From assembly GCA_947449315.1 (NCBI GenBank), contig CANFRC010000009.1:71157-135156 (forward strand): a stretch of 64,000 nt of DNA. The letters are read 5' to 3'. The position numbers and the translations under genes were made by a program. This document shows positions 49,524 through 64,000 of the stretch, piece after piece. Position 1 is the first letter of the stretch. Each line of letters opens with the position of its first letter. The notes below the pieces were generated by a model. It was not told the origin of the DNA. It worked only from the letters and a program-made list of their open reading frames with translations, and made no database searches. The DNA is from Bacteroidota bacterium (GTDB lineage: Bacteria; Bacteroidota; Bacteroidia; 2-12-FULL-35-15).

Positions 49524-49613
49524 TGGAGAGATGCCTGAGTGGCCGAAAGGAACAGTTTGCTAAACTGTCGTACTGGGAAACCGGTACCGAGGGTTCGAAT
49601 CCCTCTCTCTCCG
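49524..49613 (+). tRNA. tRNA-Ser (anticodon GCT), long variable arm
   Basis: GGAGAGA…TCTCTCC acceptor stem, D-loop AGTGGCCGAA, anticodon stem-loop ACAGT-TTGCTAA-ACTGT, long extra arm, T-arm GGTTCGAATCC. Confidence 0.85.
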
Positions 49614-49628
49614 CTGAAAAATTACAAA

Positions 49629-49668
49629 AGATCTGCTCTGATTATCAGGGCAGATCTTTTTGTTTTTA
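49629..49668 (+). terminator. hairpin plus T-run after tRNA-Ser
   Basis: agatctgctctga-ttat-cagggcagatct followed by tttttgttttt. Confidence 0.4.
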
Positions 49669-49890
49669 GCAATGACTAACCCTTGAATTTATCTCACTAA
49701 TTTTTATTTTGGGGATCAATAGCAATAAATACCTGTGCATTGCTTTCATTGGTATTGTTTGCGATCAAACGTGAATGAGATAAATTATGGTAAATAGTCA
49801 ATAGGAATTATAAACTTTTTTATTAAAATCTTTGCAGAATAAAAAATAATGGTACATTTGCATCCGCATTTATAGTTCTTTATAGTAGTT

Positions 49891-49964
49891 CGGGGCGTAG
49901 CGTAGTTGGTTATCGCGCCTGGTTTGGGACCAGGAGGTCGCAAGTTCGAGTCTTGCCGCCCCGA
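49891..49964 (+). tRNA. tRNA-Pro (anticodon TGG)
   Basis: CGGGGCG…CGCCCCG acceptor stem, anticodon stem-loop CCTGG-TTTGGGA-CCAGG, T-arm GGTCGCAAGTTCGAGTCTTGCC. Confidence 0.85.
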
Positions 49965-50048
49965 CAAAACAAGTGGTTAATGGTTATTTGTTATATTTTA
50001 CTTATAACATATTATCGTTAACCATTTTTGTTAGTAGCCTTTTAAAAT

Positions 50049-50122
50049 GATCCCATAGCTCAGCTGGATAGAGCAACGGTTTTCTAAACCGTAGGCCTTT
50101 GGTTCGAATCCAAATGGGATCA
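50049..50122 (+). tRNA. tRNA-Arg (anticodon TCT)
   Basis: GATCCCA…TGGGATC acceptor stem, D-arm TAGCTCAGCTGGATAGAGCA, anticodon loop TTTCTAA, T-arm GGTTCGAATCC. Confidence 0.85.
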
Positions 50123-50180
50123 CTAAAGCATACTGATAATCAATTAGTTAGCTGTTTGTATTGACAATATTATTGACAAA

Positions 50181-50651: not shown

Positions 50652-50832
50652 TATAAAGAAGCTTTGCGTCATACCAATGTTGCTTTGATAAAAGTGTTGG
50701 AAGGCTTGAACAATAATGTGACTGGCGATTTCTTAGCGATGGATATCCGCACCTCGCTTCATCATCTGGGTGAGAACACCGGAGAAATTTCGAGTGACGA
50801 TCTATTAGCGATTTTTTTTAGTCGATTTTGTA
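50652..50832 (+). pseudogene. mnmE: 3'-terminal fragment (last ~60 codons) of tRNA-modification GTPase gene mnmE (trmE/thdF), truncated by upstream in-frame stops
   Basis: In-frame translation [63 protein letters not shown] matches the conserved MnmE C-terminus, including the terminal FCIGK. Stops (TGA, TAG) lie immediately 5'. No G-domain is present. Confidence 0.7.
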
Positions 50833-51035
50833 TCGGGAAGTAATTTTTTTGTTTTTGGAGCAGTCAATTTTTGTAAAAAAAAATAAGGCTGTCATGAGTT
50901 TGAACTGAAAAAAGCAGCAGTAAACGGGGGGCAACATGTTTATTTTATTGAAAAAGAGTTTCCAATTAAAAAATCATTGGGATGGCGGGAAAATATATGA
51001 AACATAAAAAATGAAAAAATCATAAAATGTTTACA

Positions 51036-51072: not shown

Positions 51073-52227
51073 GTGAATATATCTAAAGATTTAATTTATC
51101 TTGATAATAATTCGACAACAAAAGTTGATGATAGGGTTATTGATGCAATGATTCCAATCATGACAGAATGCTATGGAAATCCCTCTAGCTCTCACCCATT
51201 TGGAAAAGAAATTCATCAATTAATTATTGAAGCCAGAAAAAACGTTTCAAATCTAATTAGTTGCGAACCTAAAGAAATAATATTCACATCCGGAGCAACT
51301 GAAGCTATTAACTTAGCTTTAAAAGGAATTGCCCAATCCTCTCATTTCAATAGAAAAAAAATAGTAACTTTCTCAACGGAACACAAAGCCGTTTTAGATA
51401 CTTGTAAAATCCTTGAAAACCAAGGATTTGAAATTGTAATCCTTCCTGTAAATAATGATGGTACCGTTGACATAGCTTTATTATCCAATGTTGTCGATCA
51501 AGAAACACTTCTTGTTGCTGCAATGTTCGTAAATAACGAAACTGGAGTTATTCATGATATTAAAAAAATGGCTGAAATTACCCATAATATGGGAGCAATT
51601 TTCTTTTGTGATGGCACACAGGCTGTAGGAAAAATTAAAGTAGACATAAATGAACTCGATGTTGATATGCTATGCTTTTCAGGTCACAAGTTTCACGGAC
51701 CAAAAGGAATTGGAGCATTATATGTAAACAATTCTATAAAAAATAAAATTCAAGCACAACAAACTGGTGGTGGACAGGAATCCGGATTAAGAAGTGGAAC
51801 TTCCAATACTGGAGGAATTGTTGGTTTAGGTGAAGCATGCAAAATAGCTGTAATAGAAATAAAAGAAACTGAAGTCAAAGTCGCAAAGCTAAGAGACCAA
51901 TTAGAGTCTGAACTTTTACAAATTCCAGGGACATTTATTAATGGTAATATAAAAAATCGAATTTATAACACTACTAACATTTGCTTCCCTAAAAATGACG
52001 CAAATGTAATAATAGGAAGATTAAAGAAAATTTCTGTAAGTAATGGTTCTGCATGTACATCTTTAATTGTTGAACCATCACATGTTTTATCTGCGATGGG
52101 TTTAGATAATGATTTGGCCTTTGCCTCCCTTCGCTTCTCATTAAGTAGATACAACAATATAAATGAAGTAAAAAAAGTTGTTAAAGAATTAAGTAATATT
52201 CTGATTCCAAATTTAATTATAAATTAA
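51073..52227 (+). CDS. cysteine desulfurase (class V aminotransferase, IscS/NifS/DndA/SspA-like); GTG start
   Basis: LIYLDNNSTTKVDDRV (IscS N-terminus), PLP-lysine motif FSGHKFHGPKGIGALYV, catalytic Cys loop SNGSACTS. 384 aa. Confidence 0.85.
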   Translation: MNISKDLIYLDNNSTTKVDDRVIDAMIPIMTECYGNPSSSHPFGKEIHQLIIEARKNVSNLISCEPKEIIFTSGATEAINLALKGIAQSSHFNRKKIVTFSTEHKAVLDTCKILENQGFEIVILPVNNDGTVDIALLSNVVDQETLLVAAMFVNNETGVIHDIKKMAEITHNMGAIFFCDGTQAVGKIKVDINELDVDMLCFSGHKFHGPKGIGALYVNNSIKNKIQAQQTGGGQESGLRSGTSNTGGIVGLGEACKIAVIEIKETEVKVAKLRDQLESELLQIPGTFINGNIKNRIYNTTNICFPKNDANVIIGRLKKISVSNGSACTSLIVEPSHVLSAMGLDNDLAFASLRFSLSRYNNINEVKKVVKELSNILIPNLIIN

Positions 52228-52231
52228 AAAA

Positions 52232-52447
52232 ATGGAACAGACTCTAGCAAATACCACAAATTGGCTAAAAAGTAAAGAGGTTGAAAGTAAATTGAAAGTT
52301 TATAATAGTCATTTAATGCATTTAAGACTTGAAAGTAAATTAAGTTATACCAAAAACGGGAATTCATTTTTCTACAAAAAAAGTGATGTTAAGAAAATTA
52401 AAGCTATTTTTAAAAACTCAATAATTTCAAAGAGTAGAAATAAATAG
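52232..52447 (+). CDS. small DNA-binding protein, HTH_17 (excisionase/AlpA/MerR-like) candidate
   Basis: 71 aa. …LKSKEVESKLKVYNSHLMHLRLESKLSYTKNGNSFFYKKSDVKKI fits the helix-turn-helix … wing … F..DV pattern of HTH_17. It starts 4 nt after the desulfurase stop. Confidence 0.35.
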   Translation: MEQTLANTTNWLKSKEVESKLKVYNSHLMHLRLESKLSYTKNGNSFFYKKSDVKKIKAIFKNSIISKSRNK

Positions 52448-52534
52448 AGAAAATGAATTATAAAATTGAGCCTCAAAAAAGGAAAGTTGATCTTTTTAAG
52501 GAGCTTAACAGAGTTTTAGAAGAAATTGAAAATT

Positions 52535-54115
52535 ATGATAAATGATATTAAAGAATTAATTTGTGATTTACCTGATGGAAAAAAAAGAAATTATTTAGGT
52601 CAACTTTTCGTACAGTCGCTGAGTAATTATTACTCCAATTTTGGAGTTGATGAAGAAATTGATTTAGATGAACTTCTTGTTAGAAACATCAAAGAAATTA
52701 TTATTGAGGATGAATTATTGAAAGACTTAAAATTATTCGTTTCAAAAAAATTAGAAGAACTTTTTAATCTAAATTCTAATGATATAAGTGAACTTAGAAT
52801 TAAAGATCTTCGAGCAAAACTGATTTCACATTTTGAAATAAAATTTGAAATCGATCAAACAGCTGATAGAATATATGAGAATAATTTAATCTGTAAATTT
52901 CCACTTCATGATTTTCAAGATCGAATTAGGAGAAAAGTCATAAATTTAATTTTCGATAATCAGAAACGATTTTTGATTCATATGCCGACTGGTTCTGGTA
53001 AAACAAGAACCGCAGCAGAGGTTATTTTAGATTTTATTCGATTATCTTCAAGCAAATCCTTGTTAAATGATAAAATAAAAATTCTATGGATAGCGCAATC
53101 CAGCGAACTTTGTTATCAAGCTTATGAAACAGTAAAACTTATAATAGAAAATAAAGGAACTCAAAATATAAGTTTGGCAAATTATTATGGTAATCAAGAG
53201 TTGCCAAATGATATAGAAAACAAATCAGCTGTAATTTTCTGCGGTATTCAAAAATTACTTTTACATTATACAGATGATATTTGGAGAAATATAAAAAATA
53301 ATACTTATTTAGTTATCGTTGATGAAGCGCATAGATCGGTAGCAAATCAATGGGTACAAGCATTAGATTATTTTGTGTCAGATCAAAGCGTATATTTATT
53401 AGGATTAACTGCGACACCTGGACTGGGTACAGTTAATGAAGATAGAACATTTTTGCTATCTACTTATTACCAAAGTAATAAGATAACAATAACGGATTCA
53501 AATTATGAAGAAATACCAAATCCAATTAATGAGTTAGTAAAATTAAAATTTTTGGCTCAAATAAAACGAATTGATATTGATTCGAAAGTTGTTATTGAAA
53601 ATGGTGTAGACACCTCTGACGAAAATGAAATTAAATTTTCAAATAATACTTTAGATGAATTGACTGCGAATCAACAACGAAATGCTTCAATTATTAATAT
53701 AATAAAAGAAAATCATTTAAAGAAGAAAAAAATGCTGGTTTTCACTTGTGGGTTAGAGCATAATCGTATTTTAAAATCCATATTAACAGATTTGAATATA
53801 GTTTCAGAAACTATTGATCAAAGTACTACAAATAGAAATTCTATAATTGATAGATTTAAAGATAGCAATAGTGGTCTCGATATTTTACTAAATTTTGGCA
53901 TTTTAACTACTGGATTTGACGCTCCTAAAACCGATGTATGTATCATTGCTAGACCTATTTCTTCAATTGTAATGTATTCACAAATGGTTGGAAGAATATT
54001 GCGAGGGCCAAAAAATAATGGAAACGATGAAAATACACTCTACACTATAAAAGACAACCTTGGTCACGGTGACTATGATAATCTATTTAATTCATTTAAT
54101 AATTTTTATAAATAA
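52535..54115 (+). CDS. superfamily-2 DEAD/DEAH-type helicase (restriction Res-subunit-like) with ~130-aa N-terminal domain of unknown function. The ORF is open from TTG 52526.
   Basis: Motif I HMPTGSGKTRTAA, motif II LVIVDEAHRS, motif III LGLTATPG, motif VI YSQMVGRILRG. Confidence 0.8.
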   Translation: MINDIKELICDLPDGKKRNYLGQLFVQSLSNYYSNFGVDEEIDLDELLVRNIKEIIIEDELLKDLKLFVSKKLEELFNLNSNDISELRIKDLRAKLISHFEIKFEIDQTADRIYENNLICKFPLHDFQDRIRRKVINLIFDNQKRFLIHMPTGSGKTRTAAEVILDFIRLSSSKSLLNDKIKILWIAQSSELCYQAYETVKLIIENKGTQNISLANYYGNQELPNDIENKSAVIFCGIQKLLLHYTDDIWRNIKNNTYLVIVDEAHRSVANQWVQALDYFVSDQSVYLLGLTATPGLGTVNEDRTFLLSTYYQSNKITITDSNYEEIPNPINELVKLKFLAQIKRIDIDSKVVIENGVDTSDENEIKFSNNTLDELTANQQRNASIINIIKENHLKKKKMLVFTCGLEHNRILKSILTDLNIVSETIDQSTTNRNSIIDRFKDSNSGLDILLNFGILTTGFDAPKTDVCIIARPISSIVMYSQMVGRILRGPKNNGNDENTLYTIKDNLGHGDYDNLFNSFNNFYK

Positions 54116-54121
54116 TCAACT

Positions 54122-55918
54122 ATGAGTAATAAAAGACCACTAATGGGTACAGATAATATCCTTGGGTTACAAGATAACGGATATAAAAGTACTGTTTCTG
54201 CTATTTCTGAAATAATTGATAATAGTATTCAAGCACATGCAACAAATGTTGACATTGTTATTATTAGAAATACTACTCGAGAATCGGATGAAATTGACGA
54301 AATTATGATAATTGATGACGGAGATGGAATGGATCAAAATATTTTTGACAAGGCTCTTCAAATGAGCTCAGGAAGTAGATCAAAAGCAAAATCAGGCTTA
54401 GGTAAATATGGCCAAGGCTTACCTAATTCATCTATTTCTCAAACAAAAAGAGTCGAAGTTTATACCATGCAAAAGGGGAAAATACTTTATAATCATATTG
54501 ATTTAAATGAAATTTACGAAAGTCAACAACCCTATTTACCAGATACCGAAAAAAGAAATGAAATTGATATTCCTATTTTCAAATCTAAAAAATTAAAAGC
54601 ACCTGAAACTGGTACAATAGTAAGATGGGTTAATCCTAATAAAGTAAAACCTAAAACTGCTAGAACATTAGCAACACATATTGAACAAATAGCTGGTCGA
54701 ACATTCAGATATTTTATTAATGGCTTTAAAGACAATGATGGAAAGATTTATAAATGTAATATAAACATTTTAGTCTTTGATTTTAATGGTAAAAATTATG
54801 AACCTGATAATTTTATTACAAAGAAAAATATTCTACCATTTGACCCTATGTTTCTTATGCCAGCAACGCAAATGAATAAATTGTTTCCAGAGAGCAGTCA
54901 TCCAACTAGTAGTATATTTGATGAAAAAATCAAGAAAGAATTTAAAGTTATATACAATAATGAAAAAGTAAAAACAATTGTTGAAATTAAATTATCCTAT
55001 TGCAATAAAAAAGAACGTGATAGATATGGACGAAATGCCGGTGGTGAACCTTTTGGAAAAAAGTACTTGAATAGAAATTTGATTGGTACATCTGGATACA
55101 ATAATATTTCAATAATTCGCGCCGGAAGAGAAATTGATTACGGAAGTTTTGGTTTTATTTTAGATGCTTCTGAATCAACAAATAGATGGTGGTCTGCTGA
55201 AATTTTAGTTGAGCCAGTTATAGATTCTATTATTGGTATCGATAATAAAAAACAACAAGCTTCACAAATTCAATTTGTCGACAATCAGACATCTGAGGAT
55301 TATGACCATCATGAAATTATTCGATGGATTTCTACATTTCTTACGCAAAACATTAAAAGTGTTAAGACAATTATCGAATTGCAAAATGCGTCCTCTAATG
55401 GTACAACTGCTAAGGGGAAAGGAAAAGGACCAAAACTTCCTCCCGGGGGAGGAACTGAGCCAGGAAACTCAGGAAATCCAGGCGCTAATCCTGACGATGA
55501 TGAAATGAAAAAAGTTAAGAAGGAATTATTTGAATGGATAAAAGAAAGATACCCAAAACTGAAAGATGATGAAATATGGGAAATCGTAGATTACGCATTC
55601 AGTATAAAGGATTGTCATATTTTTATTAAATCAGATTTAGGAGATACACAGCTATACAGTTATAAGGTTTTTGGCACTAAAGTTTTGATAGAAATTAATT
55701 ATACTCATAGTTTTTATAAAAGATTTATTCAAGGGTTTGAAGAAGACCCAAGTCAAGAAAAATCATTACGTTCAATCAGATTATTGATAGGTGCCATGGT
55801 TAATGCAGAAATTGTGAATGGTACTGATGAAAAAGAAATACTTAAAGATAGACGGAATATTAAAAATAGGATGTCAGAATGTTTAGAGGATTATATCGAG
55901 GATTTATACGCAAGTTAA
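54122..55918 (+). CDS. GHKL-superfamily ATPase (HATPase_c; prokaryotic MORC / MutL-like) with long C-terminal extension
   Basis: Bergerat-fold boxes: N box EIIDNSIQAHA, G1 box IIDDGDGMD, G2 box GKYGQGL. 598 aa. It starts 7 nt after the helicase stop. Confidence 0.8.
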   Translation: MSNKRPLMGTDNILGLQDNGYKSTVSAISEIIDNSIQAHATNVDIVIIRNTTRESDEIDEIMIIDDGDGMDQNIFDKALQMSSGSRSKAKSGLGKYGQGLPNSSISQTKRVEVYTMQKGKILYNHIDLNEIYESQQPYLPDTEKRNEIDIPIFKSKKLKAPETGTIVRWVNPNKVKPKTARTLATHIEQIAGRTFRYFINGFKDNDGKIYKCNINILVFDFNGKNYEPDNFITKKNILPFDPMFLMPATQMNKLFPESSHPTSSIFDEKIKKEFKVIYNNEKVKTIVEIKLSYCNKKERDRYGRNAGGEPFGKKYLNRNLIGTSGYNNISIIRAGREIDYGSFGFILDASESTNRWWSAEILVEPVIDSIIGIDNKKQQASQIQFVDNQTSEDYDHHEIIRWISTFLTQNIKSVKTIIELQNASSNGTTAKGKGKGPKLPPGGGTEPGNSGNPGANPDDDEMKKVKKELFEWIKERYPKLKDDEIWEIVDYAFSIKDCHIFIKSDLGDTQLYSYKVFGTKVLIEINYTHSFYKRFIQGFEEDPSQEKSLRSIRLLIGAMVNAEIVNGTDEKEILKDRRNIKNRMSECLEDYIEDLYAS

Positions 55919-56220
55919 ATTAACTAATTAATATGATTTTCAAATCTGATTTGGCTTTTGATATTAAAAAAAAGTAAGAGCAGTAATTATTTAACTAACT
56001 TAAAAATCTTGCAGTAGAATATTATAATTTTATTTTGTAAAAATTATTTGGATTAATTCACGAATAAAAAATGTAATACTTATTAGATAACTGCTTTAAT
56101 TTATTAAAAACTGTATTTTCAGCAATTTCATCTTTTATTTCCTTTAGGAAACACTAGAGATAAATCATTTCTCACTATATATAGTGTAAAGTTATTATTA
56201 TTCACTAATGTTTTACAATT

Positions 56221-57183
56221 ATGCTATATAGAAGTGGAGAAAATTTAGAACATGGCGCAATTAATTTCGTAAATAATTGCGAAACAGTAACATTATATTC
56301 AGCATATCTTAAATTGGATGAATTAAAGAAAATAAATGAACATAAAAAAATAAAGCAAATTATTGTCAGATGGGAAATTGAAGATCTTTGTAGAAAAATT
56401 TCAGATATCGAACTATTTCTATACTGCAAAGAAAATAGTATTGTATTATACCGAAATACTCGCATTCACTTAAAAGCCTTTTGGGATAATAAATCAGATG
56501 TGTTTTTTGGTTCTGCAAATGTTACCAACAAAGGCCTTGGCGAAAACGGGAACTTCAATTTTGAATTAAATGGCGCATTAAAGGGAATAAGTTTTGCTGA
56601 CCAAACTTATTTCAATAAATTAATATTAGACAGCGAATATGTTACAGACGACCTTTATAATAAGTTATTGGACTTAATTGAAAGTGTTGTTTTGCCAACA
56701 TTTGATTTCCCAAAACTTCCAACTCCTCCACCAACAGTAGAATATTTTTTAATTAATCAGCTTCCAATGACAACGAGTCCTGAATTACTTTTTGAAATCT
56801 ATAGTGGACAGATGAAAAATGAAATAGAAATGAATTGTGCAGCACATGACTTAGAGTTGTATCGCATACCAAAAGGACTAACTAAAACTGTTTTTTTTGA
56901 CCAATTAAAACAAACATTCAACAATCATCCTTTTATATTGGAATTTAAAGTTACAATTAAAAATTCTGTCGATGAATTAAACCGAACTGATAGGAATGGA
57001 AGTATGACTTTTGGATCTGTTAAACGATGGTTTCAAGATAAAACTACTACTGTTCCCACACCCCGCTCATTTGAATTGAATGATTATGTAAATATATTAT
57101 ACGATTGGATCTGCCATTTCGATAATTGTTACAGCCATTCCATTCCAGGAGGGTACTCTCAGGTAATTAAGTATATTTGCTAA
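56221..57183 (+). CDS. phospholipase D-family nuclease, single HKD motif (Nuc/BfiI-like)
   Basis: HLKAFWDNKSDVFFGSANVTNKG matches HxK(x)3-4D(x)6GSxN. Only one copy is present, implying dimeric use as in Nuc. The C-terminal ~150 aa are unassigned. Confidence 0.65.
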   Translation: MLYRSGENLEHGAINFVNNCETVTLYSAYLKLDELKKINEHKKIKQIIVRWEIEDLCRKISDIELFLYCKENSIVLYRNTRIHLKAFWDNKSDVFFGSANVTNKGLGENGNFNFELNGALKGISFADQTYFNKLILDSEYVTDDLYNKLLDLIESVVLPTFDFPKLPTPPPTVEYFLINQLPMTTSPELLFEIYSGQMKNEIEMNCAAHDLELYRIPKGLTKTVFFDQLKQTFNNHPFILEFKVTIKNSVDELNRTDRNGSMTFGSVKRWFQDKTTTVPTPRSFELNDYVNILYDWICHFDNCYSHSIPGGYSQVIKYIC

Positions 57184-57262: not shown

Positions 57263-58837
57263 ATGAAAATTGAAGCTTTAAAAAATCAAATTGTTTCAGG
57301 AGGTAGAACATATCCGATATTCATTGCTTTTATAGAAGCGGAGTTAGTATTAAAATACTCTGTTGTTCCAAATTTTAGTAATGATGATCATGAAGAGGCA
57401 ATTGCGGTGAATATAAAAAGTAAACCTGTAAAAAAATGGCAGCGCCCTCTAATTCAATCGAAAGTTGATGAACTGATTAAAACGTTTAATAATACTGGGG
57501 AATTCATGCCAAATCCTGTTCTGTTATCAGAAAATCCACTGCGAACAAGTAAATCACAAGAAAAAATTAAGGCCTACCCTAAAATTATCGGAGGGCAAAC
57601 TAGTTCTGTTTGGGAAATAAGTTTACCTGAAGAAAAAGAGGTCTTGTGGATTATTGACGGACAGCACAGAATTACAGGTTTAGGAGATGTTGATTGTAAA
57701 CAAAATTCAAATATTGTTCCGGTAGTGCTTTTATTAAACCCTGATACTGTTTTCTATACCCCCCCTGACTTTGCAAAAATATTTGCGCAAGTTTCAACGA
57801 CAGCTTCAGAATTAAGACCACTTCATAAAGAATGGTTGCAGTATTCTTTTGAACTGGCAAAATACGAAGGGAAGCAGTGGCAGGATTCAATGTCTACTGT
57901 GGTTGAGCTATGTGCCCACACAGAATTTATAGACCGAGGCACCACCTACCCTAATCCATATTGGGACAAAATTGTTTTTAACGATGCCAATTTAGAGAAT
58001 AATATGCGTCTAAATTGTCAAGTATTCGCAGAAATAATTCACTCAGAATATTATAATAGAAAACCAGAATACAATCATTTTGCTCCGACTGAACTAGCTG
58101 TTCTTGTTGAAAAAGCGTTCTTTCAGCTTCGTCACACAATACCAAATCCTGACCTTTCGGTGTTTTTTGGAAGCGAATCTACGATTCGTCACGTTGTTTC
58201 AATTAAGGCATATATCAGAGGCATATTAACCTATATCCTAAAATATTGCGACCCTCAAGATTCAAGCAAAACACCTGATTTGAATGCATGGAAAAATGTA
58301 TATGAAACTTTATATTTTAACAAAACTGATTTTAATTGGGCTTTACATTCTATGACTGGTGAAGCGTGGTATTCAAAGTCGGAAATTTTGGCGAATGTCG
58401 TATTTAAAGAAGCTTTTAGATCTTTGACAATCCCTGATGGTGCCGTAGATTTAACTCATTGTATTTGTCTTGGAAATAATCAATTTATAGAACTGGAATT
58501 AACAAACAATGTAGGAGTTTCTACCACAAAAAAAATCACGAGTAACACAACAGTTATAAATGACCCGGGGAATATTTCAAATATAAAAATTGTAAACAAA
58601 TCATTTAATTGCGAATTAATCAGTATCGTTGACCAAAAAACTACCCATAATTATCCTCAAAAGTTCAATATGGATTATGCGCGAAAAAATAAAGGAAAAG
58701 GAATAGATGTTCCTTTTACAAAGCCTGCAACAAAAAGTAAACCCGCATACGATACAACAAAAAACTTCAATCTTGAAGTCAAAATAACACGCTATGGCGG
58801 GGGGACTGATACAATGGTAATTAAATTTCACATTTAA
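57263..58837 (+). CDS. DGQHR-domain protein (DndB-like family), 524 aa
   Basis: Diagnostic motif VLWIIDGQHRITGL. Upstream QRPLIQSKVDEL is the DndB-type region. It is ~150 aa longer than canonical DndB, with an extra C-terminal region. Confidence 0.8.
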   Translation: MKIEALKNQIVSGGRTYPIFIAFIEAELVLKYSVVPNFSNDDHEEAIAVNIKSKPVKKWQRPLIQSKVDELIKTFNNTGEFMPNPVLLSENPLRTSKSQEKIKAYPKIIGGQTSSVWEISLPEEKEVLWIIDGQHRITGLGDVDCKQNSNIVPVVLLLNPDTVFYTPPDFAKIFAQVSTTASELRPLHKEWLQYSFELAKYEGKQWQDSMSTVVELCAHTEFIDRGTTYPNPYWDKIVFNDANLENNMRLNCQVFAEIIHSEYYNRKPEYNHFAPTELAVLVEKAFFQLRHTIPNPDLSVFFGSESTIRHVVSIKAYIRGILTYILKYCDPQDSSKTPDLNAWKNVYETLYFNKTDFNWALHSMTGEAWYSKSEILANVVFKEAFRSLTIPDGAVDLTHCICLGNNQFIELELTNNVGVSTTKKITSNTTVINDPGNISNIKIVNKSFNCELISIVDQKTTHNYPQKFNMDYARKNKGKGIDVPFTKPATKSKPAYDTTKNFNLEVKITRYGGGTDTMVIKFHI

Positions 58838-58838
58838 A

Positions 58839-59381
58839 ATGATTTTTACTGAATTAAATAATTTCAGAATCGAAATTTCTAAAAAATACGTAAATCATCT
58901 TTCTGTGTCATTTATTGTTGGATGGGAAAAATGTAGAAAATCATTAGAAACCGAAAAAGATACATATGAATTAATTTTAAAAAAATTAGCACTACTGCAT
59001 CCCGAACACTACTACTTAATTTTAAAAACTGAAACCAGTAGGATTAATAGCAAAATTGAACTAATTCAAGGAAATAGATCCTTTCCGCAGATTGATGACA
59101 CCGAAAAATGTCAATCTGAAGAACTTTGGGGGTATATTTGTCCTTTTACAATAGAAAACAAGGTTCAAGATCATGAATTTCCATACTCCTTAGGAGGCCC
59201 TACAAATAAGGCATTTAATAGAAGAATACTTTGCAGATGGCATAATATGATAAAAGCTAACGACATCCATAATTATCCCTGGGAAAAACTATTTAATCAA
59301 TATGAATATTATATAAAAACCAACAGGGTGCACTGGGTTGATGAACAATTAAATAAAATCATAAAAGAATTCAATTTGTAA
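58839..59381 (+). CDS. HNH endonuclease
   Basis: CPFTIENKVQDHEFPYSLGGPTNKAFNRRILCRWHNMIK: Cys…D-H…N…C..H-N pattern of the HNH beta-beta-alpha-Me finger. The start is 2 nt after the DGQHR gene stop, so the two are translationally coupled. Confidence 0.6.
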   Translation: MIFTELNNFRIEISKKYVNHLSVSFIVGWEKCRKSLETEKDTYELILKKLALLHPEHYYLILKTETSRINSKIELIQGNRSFPQIDDTEKCQSEELWGYICPFTIENKVQDHEFPYSLGGPTNKAFNRRILCRWHNMIKANDIHNYPWEKLFNQYEYYIKTNRVHWVDEQLNKIIKEFNL

Positions 59382-59651: not shown

Positions 59652-59908
59652 TCATCCACTAAAATATTTTTTTCCAAGCGCAGCAGCAAAGCCAACTTCA
59701 AGAGTTAAACCATAACCTGAAGGATTATCCTTTTGCAATCCCAAAGAGTATATTCAATTGGAGAAAGTAATTCGTGCTCTCTTGGATTAAAAAAAACAAC
59801 ATTACTTTTACCGACATTTTTAATAACTAGAGATTGCCAATCTATGATATTCATCCCACCTGAAAGAAATATTTTAGAGTCCATCATTTTGTGTATTAAA
59901 TAAAACAA
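59652..59908 (-). pseudogene. nucleoside 2-deoxyribosyltransferase-like small gene interrupted by a +1 frameshift near 59740-59755
   Basis: Frame A (59908-59705) encodes MMDSKIFLSGGMNIIDWQ…NVVFFNPREHE (N-terminal KI(Y/F)L(A/S)G(P/G) motif). Frame B (59753-59652) encodes …SGYGLTLEVGFAAALGKKYFSG*, the D/G..(T)..E.G.A.A.GK C-terminal signature of PF05014-like proteins. The frames overlap and differ by one nucleotide. Confidence 0.35.
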
Positions 59909-60996
59909 CTAGCACAACCCGCATCATCGTCTTCTAGTATATCAATTAGAAGAGATGATTTTTTCTGTGCATTCTTTTCAGTTTTTTTTATGTAATCTTC
60001 TTTTATCTGTTGAATTCTTTCAGGCTTAATTAAATCACCTAAGGCCTCCTCACTCCATGAGTATCCAGTTTTTTCATATTCCAAAGCCTTGTTAAAAAGA
60101 TCAGGGTGCTGTTCGTAAAGCCAAACCCACTCTATTTTCTGCTGGTAAAAACAAAAATAGCATCCTGAGCGGCTTCGTGCATACTCCCCCATTTTACCGT
60201 TTACTTCAAATTTAATCTTTTTATAATACTCAGGCACTCCAACTCCACTTTCTTCTAGTATTTTAAAAATGTCACTTTTAATTAAGATATCCTCATTATC
60301 CAGCAAAGCAAAATCATTTTCCATTGCAAGAGGGTACTCTGTAGTTTTCAGAAATTGAAATACTAAATGATTAAAACCTTTGATGTCGGTATCTAAAATA
60401 GCATTCAATTTATGTTTTAAGGTAAATGAAGTGTCTATTTTCTTAGAAATTAATGCTTCAAACTTTTCTTTATTTCTGCCCCAGTATACATTTGAAAACA
60501 TCGGCATAACTTTATCTAAATTTTGATTGGATAAAACCTTAGCAATAACATCTTCACTCCAAATGTTTTTTCGAAAAGGGAAAATCGATTGAATATTTTT
60601 TTTGGTAGAAATATAACCTTCTCTTTCCTCATCACCTCTGATGCCAACGTAAGAAACTACAGGATCATTTCCAACGTATTTCTCAAAGGGGTCAAGCTTT
60701 AAGGTCTTTGTGCACCATCTAGCAGTTGCAGAAGGCAAATAACCACCATGCAACGTCAAAAAATGATCAAATGGATCAGCTTCCGAAGTCTCTCTTGTTG
60801 CCAAAAGTAAATTAATTTTGATTCCTAAATAAACCTCCAAATTTTTTATCAGTTGGTAAGTTTCGTCAAGCTCCTTTCCAGTATCACATGAATAAAACTC
60901 CAAATCAATGCTTGGATATTTTGTTTTCATATAAATAGCTAAAGCAGCACTATCTTTTCCACCTGAAATCCCTAAAACGTGTCTTGTCTTTTTCAT
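59896..60996 (-). CDS. PAPS-reductase-family PP-loop ATP pyrophosphatase (DndC/SspD/BrxP-like), 366 aa
   Basis: N-terminal PP-loop HVLGISGGKDSAA. C-terminal Cys cluster (RSGCYFCFYQ … DAGCASCFI) as in DndC-type proteins. The start ATG overlaps the upstream gene's stop (TA[A]TG). Confidence 0.8.
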   Translation of the reverse strand: MKKTRHVLGISGGKDSAALAIYMKTKYPSIDLEFYSCDTGKELDETYQLIKNLEVYLGIKINLLLATRETSEADPFDHFLTLHGGYLPSATARWCTKTLKLDPFEKYVGNDPVVSYVGIRGDEEREGYISTKKNIQSIFPFRKNIWSEDVIAKVLSNQNLDKVMPMFSNVYWGRNKEKFEALISKKIDTSFTLKHKLNAILDTDIKGFNHLVFQFLKTTEYPLAMENDFALLDNEDILIKSDIFKILEESGVGVPEYYKKIKFEVNGKMGEYARSRSGCYFCFYQQKIEWVWLYEQHPDLFNKALEYEKTGYSWSEEALGDLIKPERIQQIKEDYIKKTEKNAQKKSSLLIDILEDDDAGCASCFI

Positions 60997-63900
60997 TATT
61001 TCAATAAATCCTTCAATAGATTAACCAATGCAGCAATATTCAATGTTTTATCTGAAGAAAGTTTCTTTTTTAATTGTTCCTTAATTTCATTTATCTCCAA
61101 CTCTTTCTTCTTAGGTATTTTTACGATTTTAGGTGCAATTCCACTAAAAAACGAGTCAATTTTAACGGCTATAACTTCTTCCTTATCTTCATCAATATCA
61201 GTTTTAGAAATATTAGTCAACCCATCAAGTTGTATGATACAGTTTTTAAATTTTTCATACAAACTAATCTCGTCCTCATCTTTAAAGGTATCTAACGTTT
61301 TACCAACAGCAATTTGAGCAAGTGAGTTCAACCAAATCTTCTTATCGTCAATTTTCGAATTTATTCGTTGAACAAATACTTTCTGATCAGCTAATAGCAA
61401 ATGTTGCTTTAACTTTTTAAATCTCTGCTGCAGCTTTTCTTTGTAATCTTCAAAATCTAATTTATCATATACAATTTCATTACAAATAAATTCTTCAAAA
61501 CGCTCAACTAATAAATCATAACATGATCTTAACTCACGAATTGTGCTCTGCAAAGTATTTGTGTATTTCTGTAACTTCTTTTTATCCTTTTGTAGTTCTA
61601 AAACCGTAAAGTCTAAAGCTGCAGGAAATGCATTAAAAAATGTATCTTCTGGGTCTTTAGAGGAAGCTATAGAAGTCCTGATTTTAATAGCTTCTTTTGA
61701 AAGACGATTGGTTTGTTTTGAATATTCAGGCAATTGCTTGTAAAAAGTAAGAAATGGCTTTATTGTTTCAATAAATGACTTATTATCAATCTTTACCCCA
61801 GTAGCTTGATTCAAAAAAGTTCTATAACTATTGAATATATCTAATTTGACACCTTCAATATCGAATGCTTTTATTTTAAATTTCGCAGGTAACTTAGAAA
61901 CTAATTCTAAATTTTCATCAGAAAGATTAGGAACGTACCCTGTTTCTCCAAAAAGCGCAAAATCGTCACGTTTAATAAACAGGAAAGTTGGAATCCAAAA
62001 ATCAATTAAGCCTTGTTTGAGCTTAAATGGCCTTTTGCTTAATATATCGACAAGCTCATCAATAGACCTAGGTTCAATTTTCGTACTTGCAATAAACTTT
62101 TCTGATGTGTTCCAAAGATCCAAAAATGAAGAAGAATTTTCAACACTTGGTACATCAGTACTTCCATCTCTAATTGGAGAGATACCATTTTCTTTCATTA
62201 GAGAAAGAAAAATAGTTTTCTCTGGCGGGAATTTATCGTTTTCAAAACCAAGATTCTCCTTATCCCAATTATTTGCTAAAGCTTTAAAATAATTTTTCTT
62301 AGCCGAATGAATAGATGGAGAAATCCTATGTTTATTCATCAATTCATTAACAAATTCTGGAGTAGAACTATAAACCGAATCGCAAATTTTAGATAAAAAT
62401 TTATTAAATAATTTTTTGTCTGTTATTGTTTTCACTTCCCCGTCCTTCCAAAACCATCTAACGTCAAGATTGTTACTGAATAGATTAGCAACAATGTATT
62501 CATTTAATATTTTTTTCTGATGTGAAAGAATACTCTCTAACTCACGTTTAGCAACTTTATCATCGACATTTTCTTCAATTACTTTTTGAATTTTTTCAAT
62601 TTCGAAAAGCAAATCTTTAATTTCATTTGCATTTCTGTAGAAACCATAAATAACAGCATCTTGTTGATTAATAGCTATTTTTTCGAGTTCATTTAATTTA
62701 AGCTTTGAATTAAATATTAGATTTATATAACCATCTATTTCACCCGTAGGAATTTTTTCTATGGGATACTCTGAAATAACAAATTCGAAAAATCGAGGAG
62801 TACCCTTTTTATAGGAATGCTGCTTTGCCAATATTGGAGCAAAAGAAAAATATTTATTTAACAAAGTAGTTATATCAGTTACCTCAGATACTTTATTTGC
62901 AGCTTCAATAAGAGCTGTTTGTATATCCAAATCTGTACCTTCAAACAAAATATATCTTTGTGAATGGGCTCTATATAGTATAATTTTTTTCTGCTCAAGC
63001 TTTTGAATTAGTTCTCTACCGTTCTTTATTCCACAAGAAGTGATTAAATATTCATCTAGAAAAACAAGGTCTAATTTTGACCCACTAGCCGAAAAAATGT
63101 TAAGCAACCCTATTGTCTTAATAATTTTTGAATACTCAACTATAGAATCATCAAATGCTCTTTCAACTTCTTCAATAGCTGTTCTTATAGAAGACCATGC
63201 AGAAAAATCAGAATTATATTTTGAAGTTAAGTACGAATAAAAATTAAAAATTAAATAATCGTATACACAAGATAAATTATAAAAAGGATTGTCTTTTTTA
63301 TTAAACTTAGCTAAACCAGTATTATCTGTAGATTCTAGAAAAGAAAACAATGACCTTTCATTTTGCCCATATCTTTGAAGTGATAGGGTCAGTACATTAG
63401 CAGAAAGTATATCCAGAGGATATAATTTACTAGCAATTTGTTGTAGAAAATCCTTGTTAAAACTAAATGCTTTTGTATTTATATTAAGCTTTAATGACCT
63501 TTCTATAATAGCCTTTCCAGCTATTGCTTCAACCGTTTCACCAATATGTTCAGAAGCCAAGAACAGCAATTGTTCCACTGGCTCATTAAAAGTAATTTCC
63601 TTAAATCGTCCCTTAACTTTCGTCCACTCTTGCTTCTGTTGTCCTTGAAGTGAAAACGCATACGATTCAAAACTTTGATGAACGGTAGTAATAAAAACGA
63701 TATTATACTTTGGGTCATTGCAAAATTCAGCCAATTGTTGAATAAAATACAATTCATCTTCTGGACTATTTTTTGAAGCATACTCTAAAAATTTGCCAAA
63801 TTCATCAATAAGAAGGAAAAGGATTTTATTTCCCTTTCCCAATGAGTGATATCGATTGAAGATTTCAGAAAAAATATTTTCTTGTTTATTTTTGTTTGAT

Positions 63901-64000
63901 GTTATCTTAAGAAGATCCGCAAAAGTTTGTATAACACTGTTATATTCCCCAATCACCTTAAGGAAATCAACTTTAGGATTATCTATAAAATTAACATTGA
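60996..64000 (-). CDS. large (>1000 aa) ATPase-like protein, N-terminus lies beyond the window end. BrxC/PglY (DUF499) or SspC-like is a candidate family.
   Basis: The minus-strand frame is open from 60996 to the window edge with no stop; the listed GTG at 63956 is not the true start. A Walker-B-like GNKILFLLIDEFGKFLEY lies near the visible N-terminus. The remainder is a long, mostly alpha-helical K/E/L/I-rich body. No P-loop is visible in the window; it is presumably upstream. Confidence 0.55.
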   Translation of the reverse strand, partial: NVNFIDNPKVDFLKVIGEYNSVIQTFADLLKITSNKNKQENIFSEIFNRYHSLGKGNKILFLLIDEFGKFLEYASKNSPEDELYFIQQLAEFCNDPKYNIVFITTVHQSFESYAFSLQGQQKQEWTKVKGRFKEITFNEPVEQLLFLASEHIGETVEAIAGKAIIERSLKLNINTKAFSFNKDFLQQIASKLYPLDILSANVLTLSLQRYGQNERSLFSFLESTDNTGLAKFNKKDNPFYNLSCVYDYLIFNFYSYLTSKYNSDFSAWSSIRTAIEEVERAFDDSIVEYSKIIKTIGLLNIFSASGSKLDLVFLDEYLITSCGIKNGRELIQKLEQKKIILYRAHSQRYILFEGTDLDIQTALIEAANKVSEVTDITTLLNKYFSFAPILAKQHSYKKGTPRFFEFVISEYPIEKIPTGEIDGYINLIFNSKLKLNELEKIAINQQDAVIYGFYRNANEIKDLLFEIEKIQKVIEENVDDKVAKRELESILSHQKKILNEYIVANLFSNNLDVRWFWKDGEVKTITDKKLFNKFLSKICDSVYSSTPEFVNELMNKHRISPSIHSAKKNYFKALANNWDKENLGFENDKFPPEKTIFLSLMKENGISPIRDGSTDVPSVENSSSFLDLWNTSEKFIASTKIEPRSIDELVDILSKRPFKLKQGLIDFWIPTFLFIKRDDFALFGETGYVPNLSDENLELVSKLPAKFKIKAFDIEGVKLDIFNSYRTFLNQATGVKIDNKSFIETIKPFLTFYKQLPEYSKQTNRLSKEAIKIRTSIASSKDPEDTFFNAFPAALDFTVLELQKDKKKLQKYTNTLQSTIRELRSCYDLLVERFEEFICNEIVYDKLDFEDYKEKLQQRFKKLKQHLLLADQKVFVQRINSKIDDKKIWLNSLAQIAVGKTLDTFKDEDEISLYEKFKNCIIQLDGLTNISKTDIDEDKEEVIAVKIDSFFSGIAPKIVKIPKKKELEINEIKEQLKKKLSSDKTLNIAALVNLLKDLLK

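Follow-up and report, generated by a model that had tools for sequence, protein, structure and literature searches.

Phosphorothioate (PT)-based defence is known to be combined with several restriction partners, namely DndFGH, DndI, SspE, SspFGH, PbeABCD and enzymes joining a sulfur-binding domain (SBD) to an HNH nuclease, and many Dnd and Ssp loci occur without any of them. In SspE, a single polypeptide composed of a DUF262 GTPase with a DGQQR motif and a DUF1524 HNH nickase, recognition of PT is followed by GTP hydrolysis, by which the HNH domain is licensed (PMC13251355). DndI, a DUF262-DUF1524 single chain with DGQQR encoded in the arrangement IscS-DndBCDE-DndI, is released from self DNA by PT-stimulated ATP hydrolysis and is toxic when PT is missing (PMC11662687). 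GmrS and GmrD occur in split or fused forms (PMC4619093), and GmrSD-type enzymes are recurrent auxiliary effectors in bacteriophage exclusion (BREX) and restriction-modification (R-M) loci (PMC12839542). The design principle of a ParB-like nucleoside triphosphatase (NTPase) combined with an HNH nuclease is already known, and the gene pair described here, DGQHR-520 and HNH-180, is a variant of it. The pair is located in an Ssp locus of Bacteroidota bacterium, within 64,000 nucleotides of contig CANFRC010000009.1 (positions 71,157 to 135,156; assembly GCA_947449315.1), hereafter called the window. As a two-protein system, it is probably a counterpart, so far undescribed, of the SspE kind of enzyme, and is in our best reading analogous to SspE, DndI and GmrSD yet unrelated to them in sequence.

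The DGQHR-520 and HNH-180 genes

An initial annotation of this region reported an open reading frame (ORF) of 524 aa with a DGQHR motif, followed by one of 180 aa. Both are present, with the following parts:

57263..58837, plus strand: DGQHR-520, ORF of 524 aa, a ParB-like protein of a distinct DGQHR family
57263..57757, plus strand: N-terminal alpha/beta domain of DGQHR-520 (aa 1-165), putatively ParB/Srx-like
57758..58474, plus strand: central all-helical domain of DGQHR-520 (aa 166-404), from the secondary structure of the model; well conserved
58475..58834, plus strand: C-terminal all-beta immunoglobulin (Ig)-like sandwich of DGQHR-520 (aa 405-524), its most variable domain
58835..58841, plus strand: gene junction CAC ATT TAA a ATG, with a 1-nt spacer
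58839..59381, plus strand: HNH-180, a small standalone HNH nuclease of 180 aa, with an N-terminal helical bundle (aa 1-77), a beta-beta-alpha-metal core (approximately aa 108-145, codons 59160-59273) and C-terminal helices

DGQHR-520 carries the sequence WIIDGQHRITGL, in which the DGQHR pentapeptide (D132-R136) is encoded at 57656-57670. Among 59 homologs, W59-Q60-R61 and D132-G-Q-H-R136 are invariant. In the helical domain, F174, H188 and W191 are invariant residues. The AlphaFold monomer is predicted with a mean local confidence (pLDDT) of 93 and a predicted template-modelling score (pTM) of 0.89. A helical domain follows the ParB core also in ParB/DUF262 defence proteins (PMC12065111), and the helical domain of DGQHR-520 may be its equivalent. 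Searches of a 5.8-billion-protein collection gave 86 homologs, with E-values down to 1e-184 and identities down to 28%, the closest relative anywhere being 54% identical. Almost all of them are 510-545 aa long, so that a length of ~520 aa, including the C-terminal region, is kept throughout the family. Judged by their homologs, DGQHR-520 and HNH-180 are genuine genes, and neither is a chance ORF.

The initial annotation regarded DGQHR-520 as a longer DndB with an extra C-terminal region. The length and the C-terminal region are indeed conserved, but the description as an extended DndB does not hold. DGQHR-520 shares with DndB (PF14072) the DGQHR pentapeptide, the QR pair and a ParB-like core, and differs from it in being ~160 aa longer, in having the Ig-like domain and in always being paired with an HNH gene. 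Using hhalign against seven canonical DndB proteins, only residues 55-165 were aligned (probability 56%, E=1e-4), and DGQHR-520 is therefore assigned to a separate DGQHR/ParB-like family. The score on TIGR03187 was 45.6 bits, below the curated cut-off of 58.85, no Pfam match was obtained for DGQHR-520, and a few members of its family have a precomputed PF14072 match. In addition, Dnd loci with the pair carry a separate DndB of 345-405 aa next to dndC. A DndB with a C-terminal tail was rejected on the limited hhalign alignment together with the co-occurring canonical DndB; in the window, which is an Ssp and not a Dnd locus, DGQHR-520 is not the DndB at the head of dndBCDE. According to the model, the real extension of the protein is the predicted C-terminal Ig-like sandwich. 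Identity with DpdB was likewise discarded, as DGQHR-520 scored 27.3 bits on NF041060 against a cut-off of 300 and no dpdA gene, encoding a tRNA-guanine transglycosylase (TGT)-like protein, was seen in the neighbourhoods examined; a match to TIGR04172 was also weak.

Long proteins with a DGQHR/DndB core were observed outside the pair as well, in L037, L041 and L047 (about 815 aa) and in L039, L042 and L059 (about 700-800 aa). In these, a cold-shock domain is present at the N-terminus or a Schlafen AlbA_2 domain at the C-terminus, and one has a weak Card1-like endonuclease match in addition. Multi-domain proteins thus reuse the DndB-like core as a module.

The window copy of HNH-180 gave no match in Pfam, NCBIfam, PADLOC or the Protein Data Bank (PDB), and HNH profiles returned nothing even at E<=10. 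Its homologs could be assigned more readily: seven of 20 match HNH_5 (best E=3e-5), six match HNH (best 3e-4) and three match HNH_4. Across 31 independent loci, which were chosen via the DGQHR gene, C91, C101, D111, H112, N127, C132, N136 and K139 of HNH-180 show no variation, and 30 of these loci retain H135. In the model, residues 108-112 and 128-132 form strands and residues 133-141 the subsequent helix, and the catalytic HNH motif (D111-H112, N127, N136) thereby falls on a beta-beta-alpha-metal core as in the HNH (His-Me finger) superfamily. The concern that the HNH motif might be degenerate is thus settled by the invariance of its residues. A word-indexed search found 18 HNH-180 homologs, and an exhaustive profile search of 1.84 billion representatives found 346 clusters, 190 of them at E<=1e-10. 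The best 150 relatives all stand alone, with lengths of approximately 85-226 aa that mostly fall within 155-180 aa. Neither Foldseek against the PDB nor sequence and profile searches of PDB sequences returned anything significant, the fold matches being weak.

Pairing and distribution

The two genes were initially reported to be separated by 2 nt; the spacer is in fact 1 nt (TAA-a-ATG), and this junction is consistent with translational coupling as read from the sequence. In relatives, the intergenic distance ranges from -47 to +11 nt, most commonly as a 4-nt overlap of the ATGA type. Loci were gathered from reference genomes, metagenomes and exact-protein look-ups, sampling being by motif patterns and not a census. 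In total, 87 loci had a DGQHR protein reaching into the C-terminal domain, and 82 of these had enough downstream sequence to be evaluated. In 81 of the 82, the gene that directly follows on the same strand belongs to the small HNH family, and the C-terminal region and the HNH gene are thus conserved together with the DGQHR gene. Pairwise identities of DGQHR-520 and HNH-180 are correlated across the 31 loci (Mantel r=0.85, reached by 0 of 2000 permutations), from which it follows that the two proteins have been inherited together. The DGQHR module is thus coupled to an HNH nuclease, adjacent to it and co-diverging with it, as in enzymes of the GmrSD/SspE/DndI type, the coupling here being genetic. 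The further suggestion that DGQHR-520 works with a nuclease and is not a mere regulator fits this co-inheritance, the presence of a separate canonical DndB of ~360 aa and the SspE-like slot described below.

The hosts span at least eight bacterial phyla and include one archaeal metagenome-assembled genome (MAG). They comprise Gamma- and Alphaproteobacteria, Actinomycetota, Verrucomicrobiota (an Akkermansia MAG), Cyanobacteria, Planctomycetota, Bacteroidota, Armatimonadota/Abditibacteriota, a Clostridia MAG and a euryarchaeal MAG. Among 2.9 million viral contigs (IMG/VR), none contained a member of full length, and a phage origin of the pair was rejected on this result. A Rosetta-stone search revealed no DGQHR-HNH fusion in the top 150 HNH relatives or in 10 long DGQHR-core proteins.

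A shorter pair was observed in an Ignavibacteriaceae MAG (L082 13103-14981), where a 379-aa DndB-family protein, above the PF14072 threshold, overlaps a 269-aa protein with a C-terminal HNH domain that passes the PF01844 threshold. Because of this DndB-family/HNH pair, the pairing of DGQHR and HNH proteins reaches past the 520-aa family.

The effector slot of flavobacterial Ssp islands

The genes surrounding the pair in the window are as follows:

51073..52227, plus strand: SspA/DndA-type cysteine desulfurase (PADLOC SspA, E=5e-149)
52526-54115, plus strand: superfamily 2 (SF2; ResIII/DEAD) helicase, by Pfam and PADLOC
54122-55918, plus strand: GHKL (HATPase_c_3) ATPase, by Pfam and PADLOC
56221..57183, plus strand: HKD-320, a phospholipase D (PLD)-family nuclease (HxK...GSxN) of 320 aa with the motif RIHLKAFW...GSANVT
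59896-60996, minus strand: sspD (PADLOC SspD, E=1e-89), convergent with the pair
60996-63956, minus strand: sspC (PADLOC SspC, E=0, profile positions 77-1038), convergent with the pair

SspA, SspC and SspD were detected in the window by PADLOC. The N-terminus of sspC is cut by the window end, the position of sspB being past base 64000, and in syntenic relatives SspB (DUF4007) is seen upstream of sspC. By its gene content, the locus is probably an SspABCD phosphorothioation island. The pair itself was considered as SspB and rejected, SspB being encoded in these relatives by a separate gene of 289-299 aa.

Flavobacterial Ssp islands share a layout in which sspA, a variable segment, the helicase, GHKL and HKD-320 genes lead towards a slot that is approached from the opposite side by sspD, sspC and sspB. 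The slot is empty in Aurantibacter and is taken up by small genes without relation to the pair in a Polaribacter MAG and one further genome. The DGQHR-HNH pair occupies it in the window and in three metagenomic relatives. In two islands whose HKD-320 is 84-85% identical to that of the window, the slot is instead occupied by GmrSD-family proteins. One of these is an 874-aa protein with GmrSD_N and GmrSD_C directly after sspD, which corresponds to SspE in both position and architecture and matches the PADLOC SspE model over its DUF262 part (E=2.5e-13). The other island (L175 10996-14025, minus strand) encodes a 713-aa protein with GmrSD_N only, followed by a 288-aa ORF without family, and these two genes may represent a further case in which sensor and effector are split, at the same position. 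The exchange in one slot of a ParB-NTPase/HNH enzyme for ParB-like and HNH proteins is the strongest single argument for a functional analogy, which would make the pair a candidate equivalent of SspE. While relatives of HKD-320 are 83-87% identical to it, the nearest DGQHR relative shows 54% identity, and the pair was therefore acquired separately from the rest of the island.

Comparison with known ParB/HNH and PT-directed nucleases

Like the pair, SspE combines a D-G-Q-x-R module of the ParB superfamily with an HNH-type nuclease, and it occupies the same slot adjoining sspD in Ssp islands. The pair differs from it in consisting of two proteins, in having DGQHR and not DGQQR, in its extra Ig-like domain, in a nuclease belonging to the HNH/HNH_5 clade instead of DUF1524 and in being transcribed convergently to sspBCD. 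No match of the pair to GmrSD_N (PF03235), GmrSD_C (PF07510) or the PADLOC SspE models was obtained, and a DGQHR-520 family profile run against PDB sequences found no SspE, DndI or BrxU chain. DndI resembles the pair as a ParB-like NTPase/HNH effector beside dndBCDE, a setting (Dnd/Pbe) in which the pair is found in 13 of 40 loci, but is without detectable sequence homology to it, is a single chain with DGQQR and has no Ig-like domain. The likeness to GmrSD and BrxU, including split GmrS plus GmrD, is limited to motif, architecture and predicted fold; their nucleases belong to another clade, and no fused form was found in the family of the pair. Enzymes of the ScoMcrA/SprMcrA type, in which an SBD is joined to an HNH domain, are HNH nucleases tied to PT loci as well, and SBD proteins are encoded immediately upstream of the pair in two loci (L001 and L002). 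In contrast to these enzymes, the pair has no detectable SBD, and HNH-180 is small and standalone with a helical N-terminal bundle.

PADLOC-DB 2.0 (2023), NCBIfam 20 (2026) and Pfam (2025 copy) contain no model specific to DGQHR-520 or HNH-180, and the proteins of the pair are publicly annotated as 'hypothetical' or 'DGQHR domain-containing protein'. A description of the pair was not found in the open-access literature searched, including comprehensive comparative genomics of Dnd and BREX neighbourhoods, although a prior account elsewhere is possible.

Genomic neighbours of the pair

For 40 non-redundant loci flanked by 8 kb or more, the neighbours were classified by iterative hidden Markov models (HMMs) seeded from annotated examples, since BLAST clustering lacked the sensitivity needed for comparisons between phyla. 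Dnd and/or Pbe (CxC ABC ATPase) clusters adjoin the pair in 13 loci, SspABCD in four and a C5 cytosine methyltransferase, often with Vsr, in nine. For the remaining 14, no such modification system was found by these HMM seeds, by which divergent systems may be missed. The pair is accordingly not Ssp-specific, occurring beside Dnd/Pbe, beside C5-methylase R-M systems or beside neither. By these raw counts, it behaves as an autonomous, mobile two-gene module that is often located beside DNA-modification systems but is not bound to them. At loci without detected modification genes, housekeeping genes are interspersed with integrases, a transposase, a TrwC relaxase and genes of the AbiEii-like and PIN kinds.

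C5 methylases were the commonest neighbours in a set of 72 non-redundant loci (28 loci; less than 300 nt away in 13, in varied orientations). The identity of the methylase co-varies with that of the DGQHR protein (Mantel r=0.77), which shared host phylogeny could explain. The adjacent methylase is usually convergent with its own conserved ORF of 240 or 325 aa, without Pfam match (for example L104 2614-3591, L114 4163-4885 and L108 13565-14284). These ORFs are presumably uncharacterised type II restriction enzymes, and since the methylase has a convergent ORF of its own, the R-M unit may already be complete. The view that the pair is the cognate restriction component of the adjacent methylase is weakened accordingly.

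In two Dnd loci, SBD proteins directly precede the pair. The Psychromonas locus (L001 9284-9859) encodes a standalone, nuclease-less ScoMcrA-type SBD protein of 191 aa, and the Alteromonas locus (L002 8994-9866) an SBD-HNH_2 protein next to DndFGH. The nuclease-less PT reader beside the pair hints at a three-part PT-reading system. In an Akkermansia muciniphila MAG (L004 5131-8600 and 9784-11888), the pair was observed beside dndBCDE and a cysteine desulfurase, and two extra long DndB-family proteins (561 and 608 aa) are encoded upstream.

Other features of the Ssp island

The low-GC island (0.27-0.32, against ~0.35) begins just after two further features of the window:

49525-50123: tRNA-Ser(GCT)/Pro(TGG)/Arg(TCT) cluster, immediately before the island
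50664-50843: 59-aa ORF, the 3' remnant of a truncated mnmE, its match being confined to the final 52 positions of the MnmE helical domain

Together, the tRNA cluster and the mnmE 3' remnant at the island start suggest that the island was inserted at this site. Repeats flanking the insertion look like AT-rich chance matches, and promoter and terminator scans were at shuffle expectation.

HKD-320 has the invariant residues H83, K85 and G97-S98-x-N100, and PLDc_2 matches four of four family members examined. The family has more than 504 members, and the named homologs are Flavobacteriia. As HKD-320 is found also in islands without the pair, it belongs to the core of flavobacterial Ssp islands and stands outside the pair. 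An SBD was looked for in its C-terminal half and none was detected. The helicase-GHKL dyad is kept in the island (synteny in L083-L087 and L172-L176), and it adjoins the pair also in the C5-methylase locus L108. The trio of SF2 helicase, GHKL ATPase and HKD/PLD nuclease (52526-57183), located between sspA and sspD, was observed in all flavobacterial Ssp islands examined, with or without the pair, synteny being exemplified by the window, L083, L085, L087 and L172-L176. No specific PADLOC model exists for the trio, which showed no SspE or SspFGH match and only weak matches to PbeA, MzaB and DrmC. We regard it as a candidate for a so far uncharacterised restriction module of SspABCD. SspF carries a Walker A motif and SspH is FtsK-like (PMC8092258); an identification of the trio as SspFGH was rejected on these features and on the missing PADLOC SspFGH matches.

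A second variable slot lies between sspA and the helicase gene. It holds a 71-aa ORF in the window (52232-52447) and unrelated ORFs of 145-790 aa in relatives (L083 1720-3537, L085 4547-5296, L087 3512-3949, L174 5201-6430 and L175 3233-5605), and is empty in L172 and L173. For the 605-aa ORF of L083, a Pfam scan gave no match, and no Pfam family is recorded for the other ORFs. In addition, L083 (7290-8921) and L087 (7309-8934) carry a gene with NERD and UvrD-like helicase domains on the minus strand between the GHKL and HKD genes, where the window has merely a gap of 302 nt (55919-56220).

A putative two-subunit nuclease and its alternatives

The strict pairing, co-inheritance, intact catalytic motifs, domain anatomy, slot equivalence and frequent location beside DNA-modification systems computed here lead us to propose that the pair is a two-subunit, NTP-gated DNA nuclease acting as a defence effector, and in this island as a PT-using restriction arm in the SspE slot; by analogy with the described enzymes, we give this reading a probability of about 0.5. 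A role as restriction arm is the most likely one because SspE-like enzymes hold the same slot in sister islands. DGQHR-520 would be the sensor and switch subunit, composed of a nucleotide-binding DGQHR core of ParB/Srx fold, a helical domain and a variable Ig-like domain, and HNH-180 would be the catalytic subunit. Nucleotide binding or hydrolysis by the DGQHR subunit, tuned by the modification state of the contacted DNA, would either permit its HNH partner to nick or cleave DNA or prevent it from doing so. As mobile cargo put into the variable effector slot next to sspD, the pair would use the PT marks of the host for discrimination between self and non-self, where PT may stimulate, restrain or not matter. 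Complex formation, NTPase and nuclease activities, responsiveness to PT and an anti-phage function are what we infer for the pair from this analogy.

The main rival is a PT-independent, type IV-like restriction system comparable to GmrSD or BrxU, which would attack foreign-modified phage DNA, be co-located with PT and methylase systems through the clustering of defence genes in islands and ignore host PT; we regard this as a possibility to be entertained tentatively. The occurrence of the pair with three unrelated modification chemistries, and with none detected in 14 of 40 loci, fits this explanation, as do the integrases, transposase, relaxase, AbiEii-like and PIN genes among its neighbours and the adjacent C5 methylases, whose R-M unit is maybe complete with the convergent 240/325-aa partner. 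Ssp islands of flavobacteria work as units also where the pair is missing, and auxiliary effectors of the GmrSD family are documented in BREX and R-M loci (PMC12839542). Against it, by raw count, 17 of 40 loci adjoin PT clusters, which a minority of genomes possess. Further points against are the SBD proteins, as PT readers, directly preceding the pair in two Dnd loci, the location of the pair in the SspE slot and the co-variation of C5-methylase and DGQHR identities, the last being explicable by shared host phylogeny.

A selfish or addiction module, in which HNH-180 is a toxin or homing nuclease checked by, or targeted by, its DNA-binding DGQHR partner, is highly unlikely. Small standalone HNH proteins are typically homing nucleases, and the pair is small, mobile and patchy across phyla, with integrases, transposases and a relaxase flanking some loci; the contrast between its nearest relative (54%) and the neighbouring island genes (~85%) indicates independent acquisition. 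However, the viral contigs yielded no full-length member, the pair lies outside host genes and introns, a typical antitoxin is far smaller and less conserved than the 520-aa partner, and the association with modification-based defence loci is steady.

Least probable of all is a function on the modification side, with DGQHR-520 as a DndB/DpdB-like regulator or ATPase and HNH-180 as a nickase for sulfur insertion or for tuning the modification frequency. SspB of Ssp systems is reportedly a nickase, which would be a precedent for nicking. Although DndB is a regulator (PMC4507180), DpdB is an ATPase for base insertion (PMC12839542) and weak DpdB and TIGR04172 matches were obtained, this function is opposed by the DndB or SspB that loci with the pair have of their own, by the conservation of the same Ssp island without the pair, by the occurrence of the pair with C5 methylases and without modification genes, by the restriction of the DndB similarity to ~100 residues and by the lack of a dpdA/TGT gene in the neighbourhoods examined.

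The proposed two-subunit nuclease may also be viewed more widely, as a broad two-protein effector that serves as a swappable restriction arm across double-stranded PT (Dnd), single-stranded PT (Ssp) and 5-methylcytosine (Dcm-type) marking. Its variable Ig-like and helical regions would then read the host mark, and it would have arisen independently of GmrSD, SspE and DndI from a DndB-like ancestor. We offer this wider view with reserve and consider it doubtful in its full extent.

Implications

The pair is a candidate for a further restriction partner of PT-based defence, found with Dnd, Ssp and C5 methylases. If active, it would represent a convergent re-invention of the design in which a ParB-NTPase switch is combined with an HNH nuclease, starting from the DndB-like branch of the superfamily, and it would supply a new model for tools that annotate defence systems. 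Sensor and nuclease would moreover be split by nature, so that each subunit could be purified and mutated on its own, which would be useful for understanding how effectors of this type distinguish sparsely modified DNA of the host from foreign DNA.

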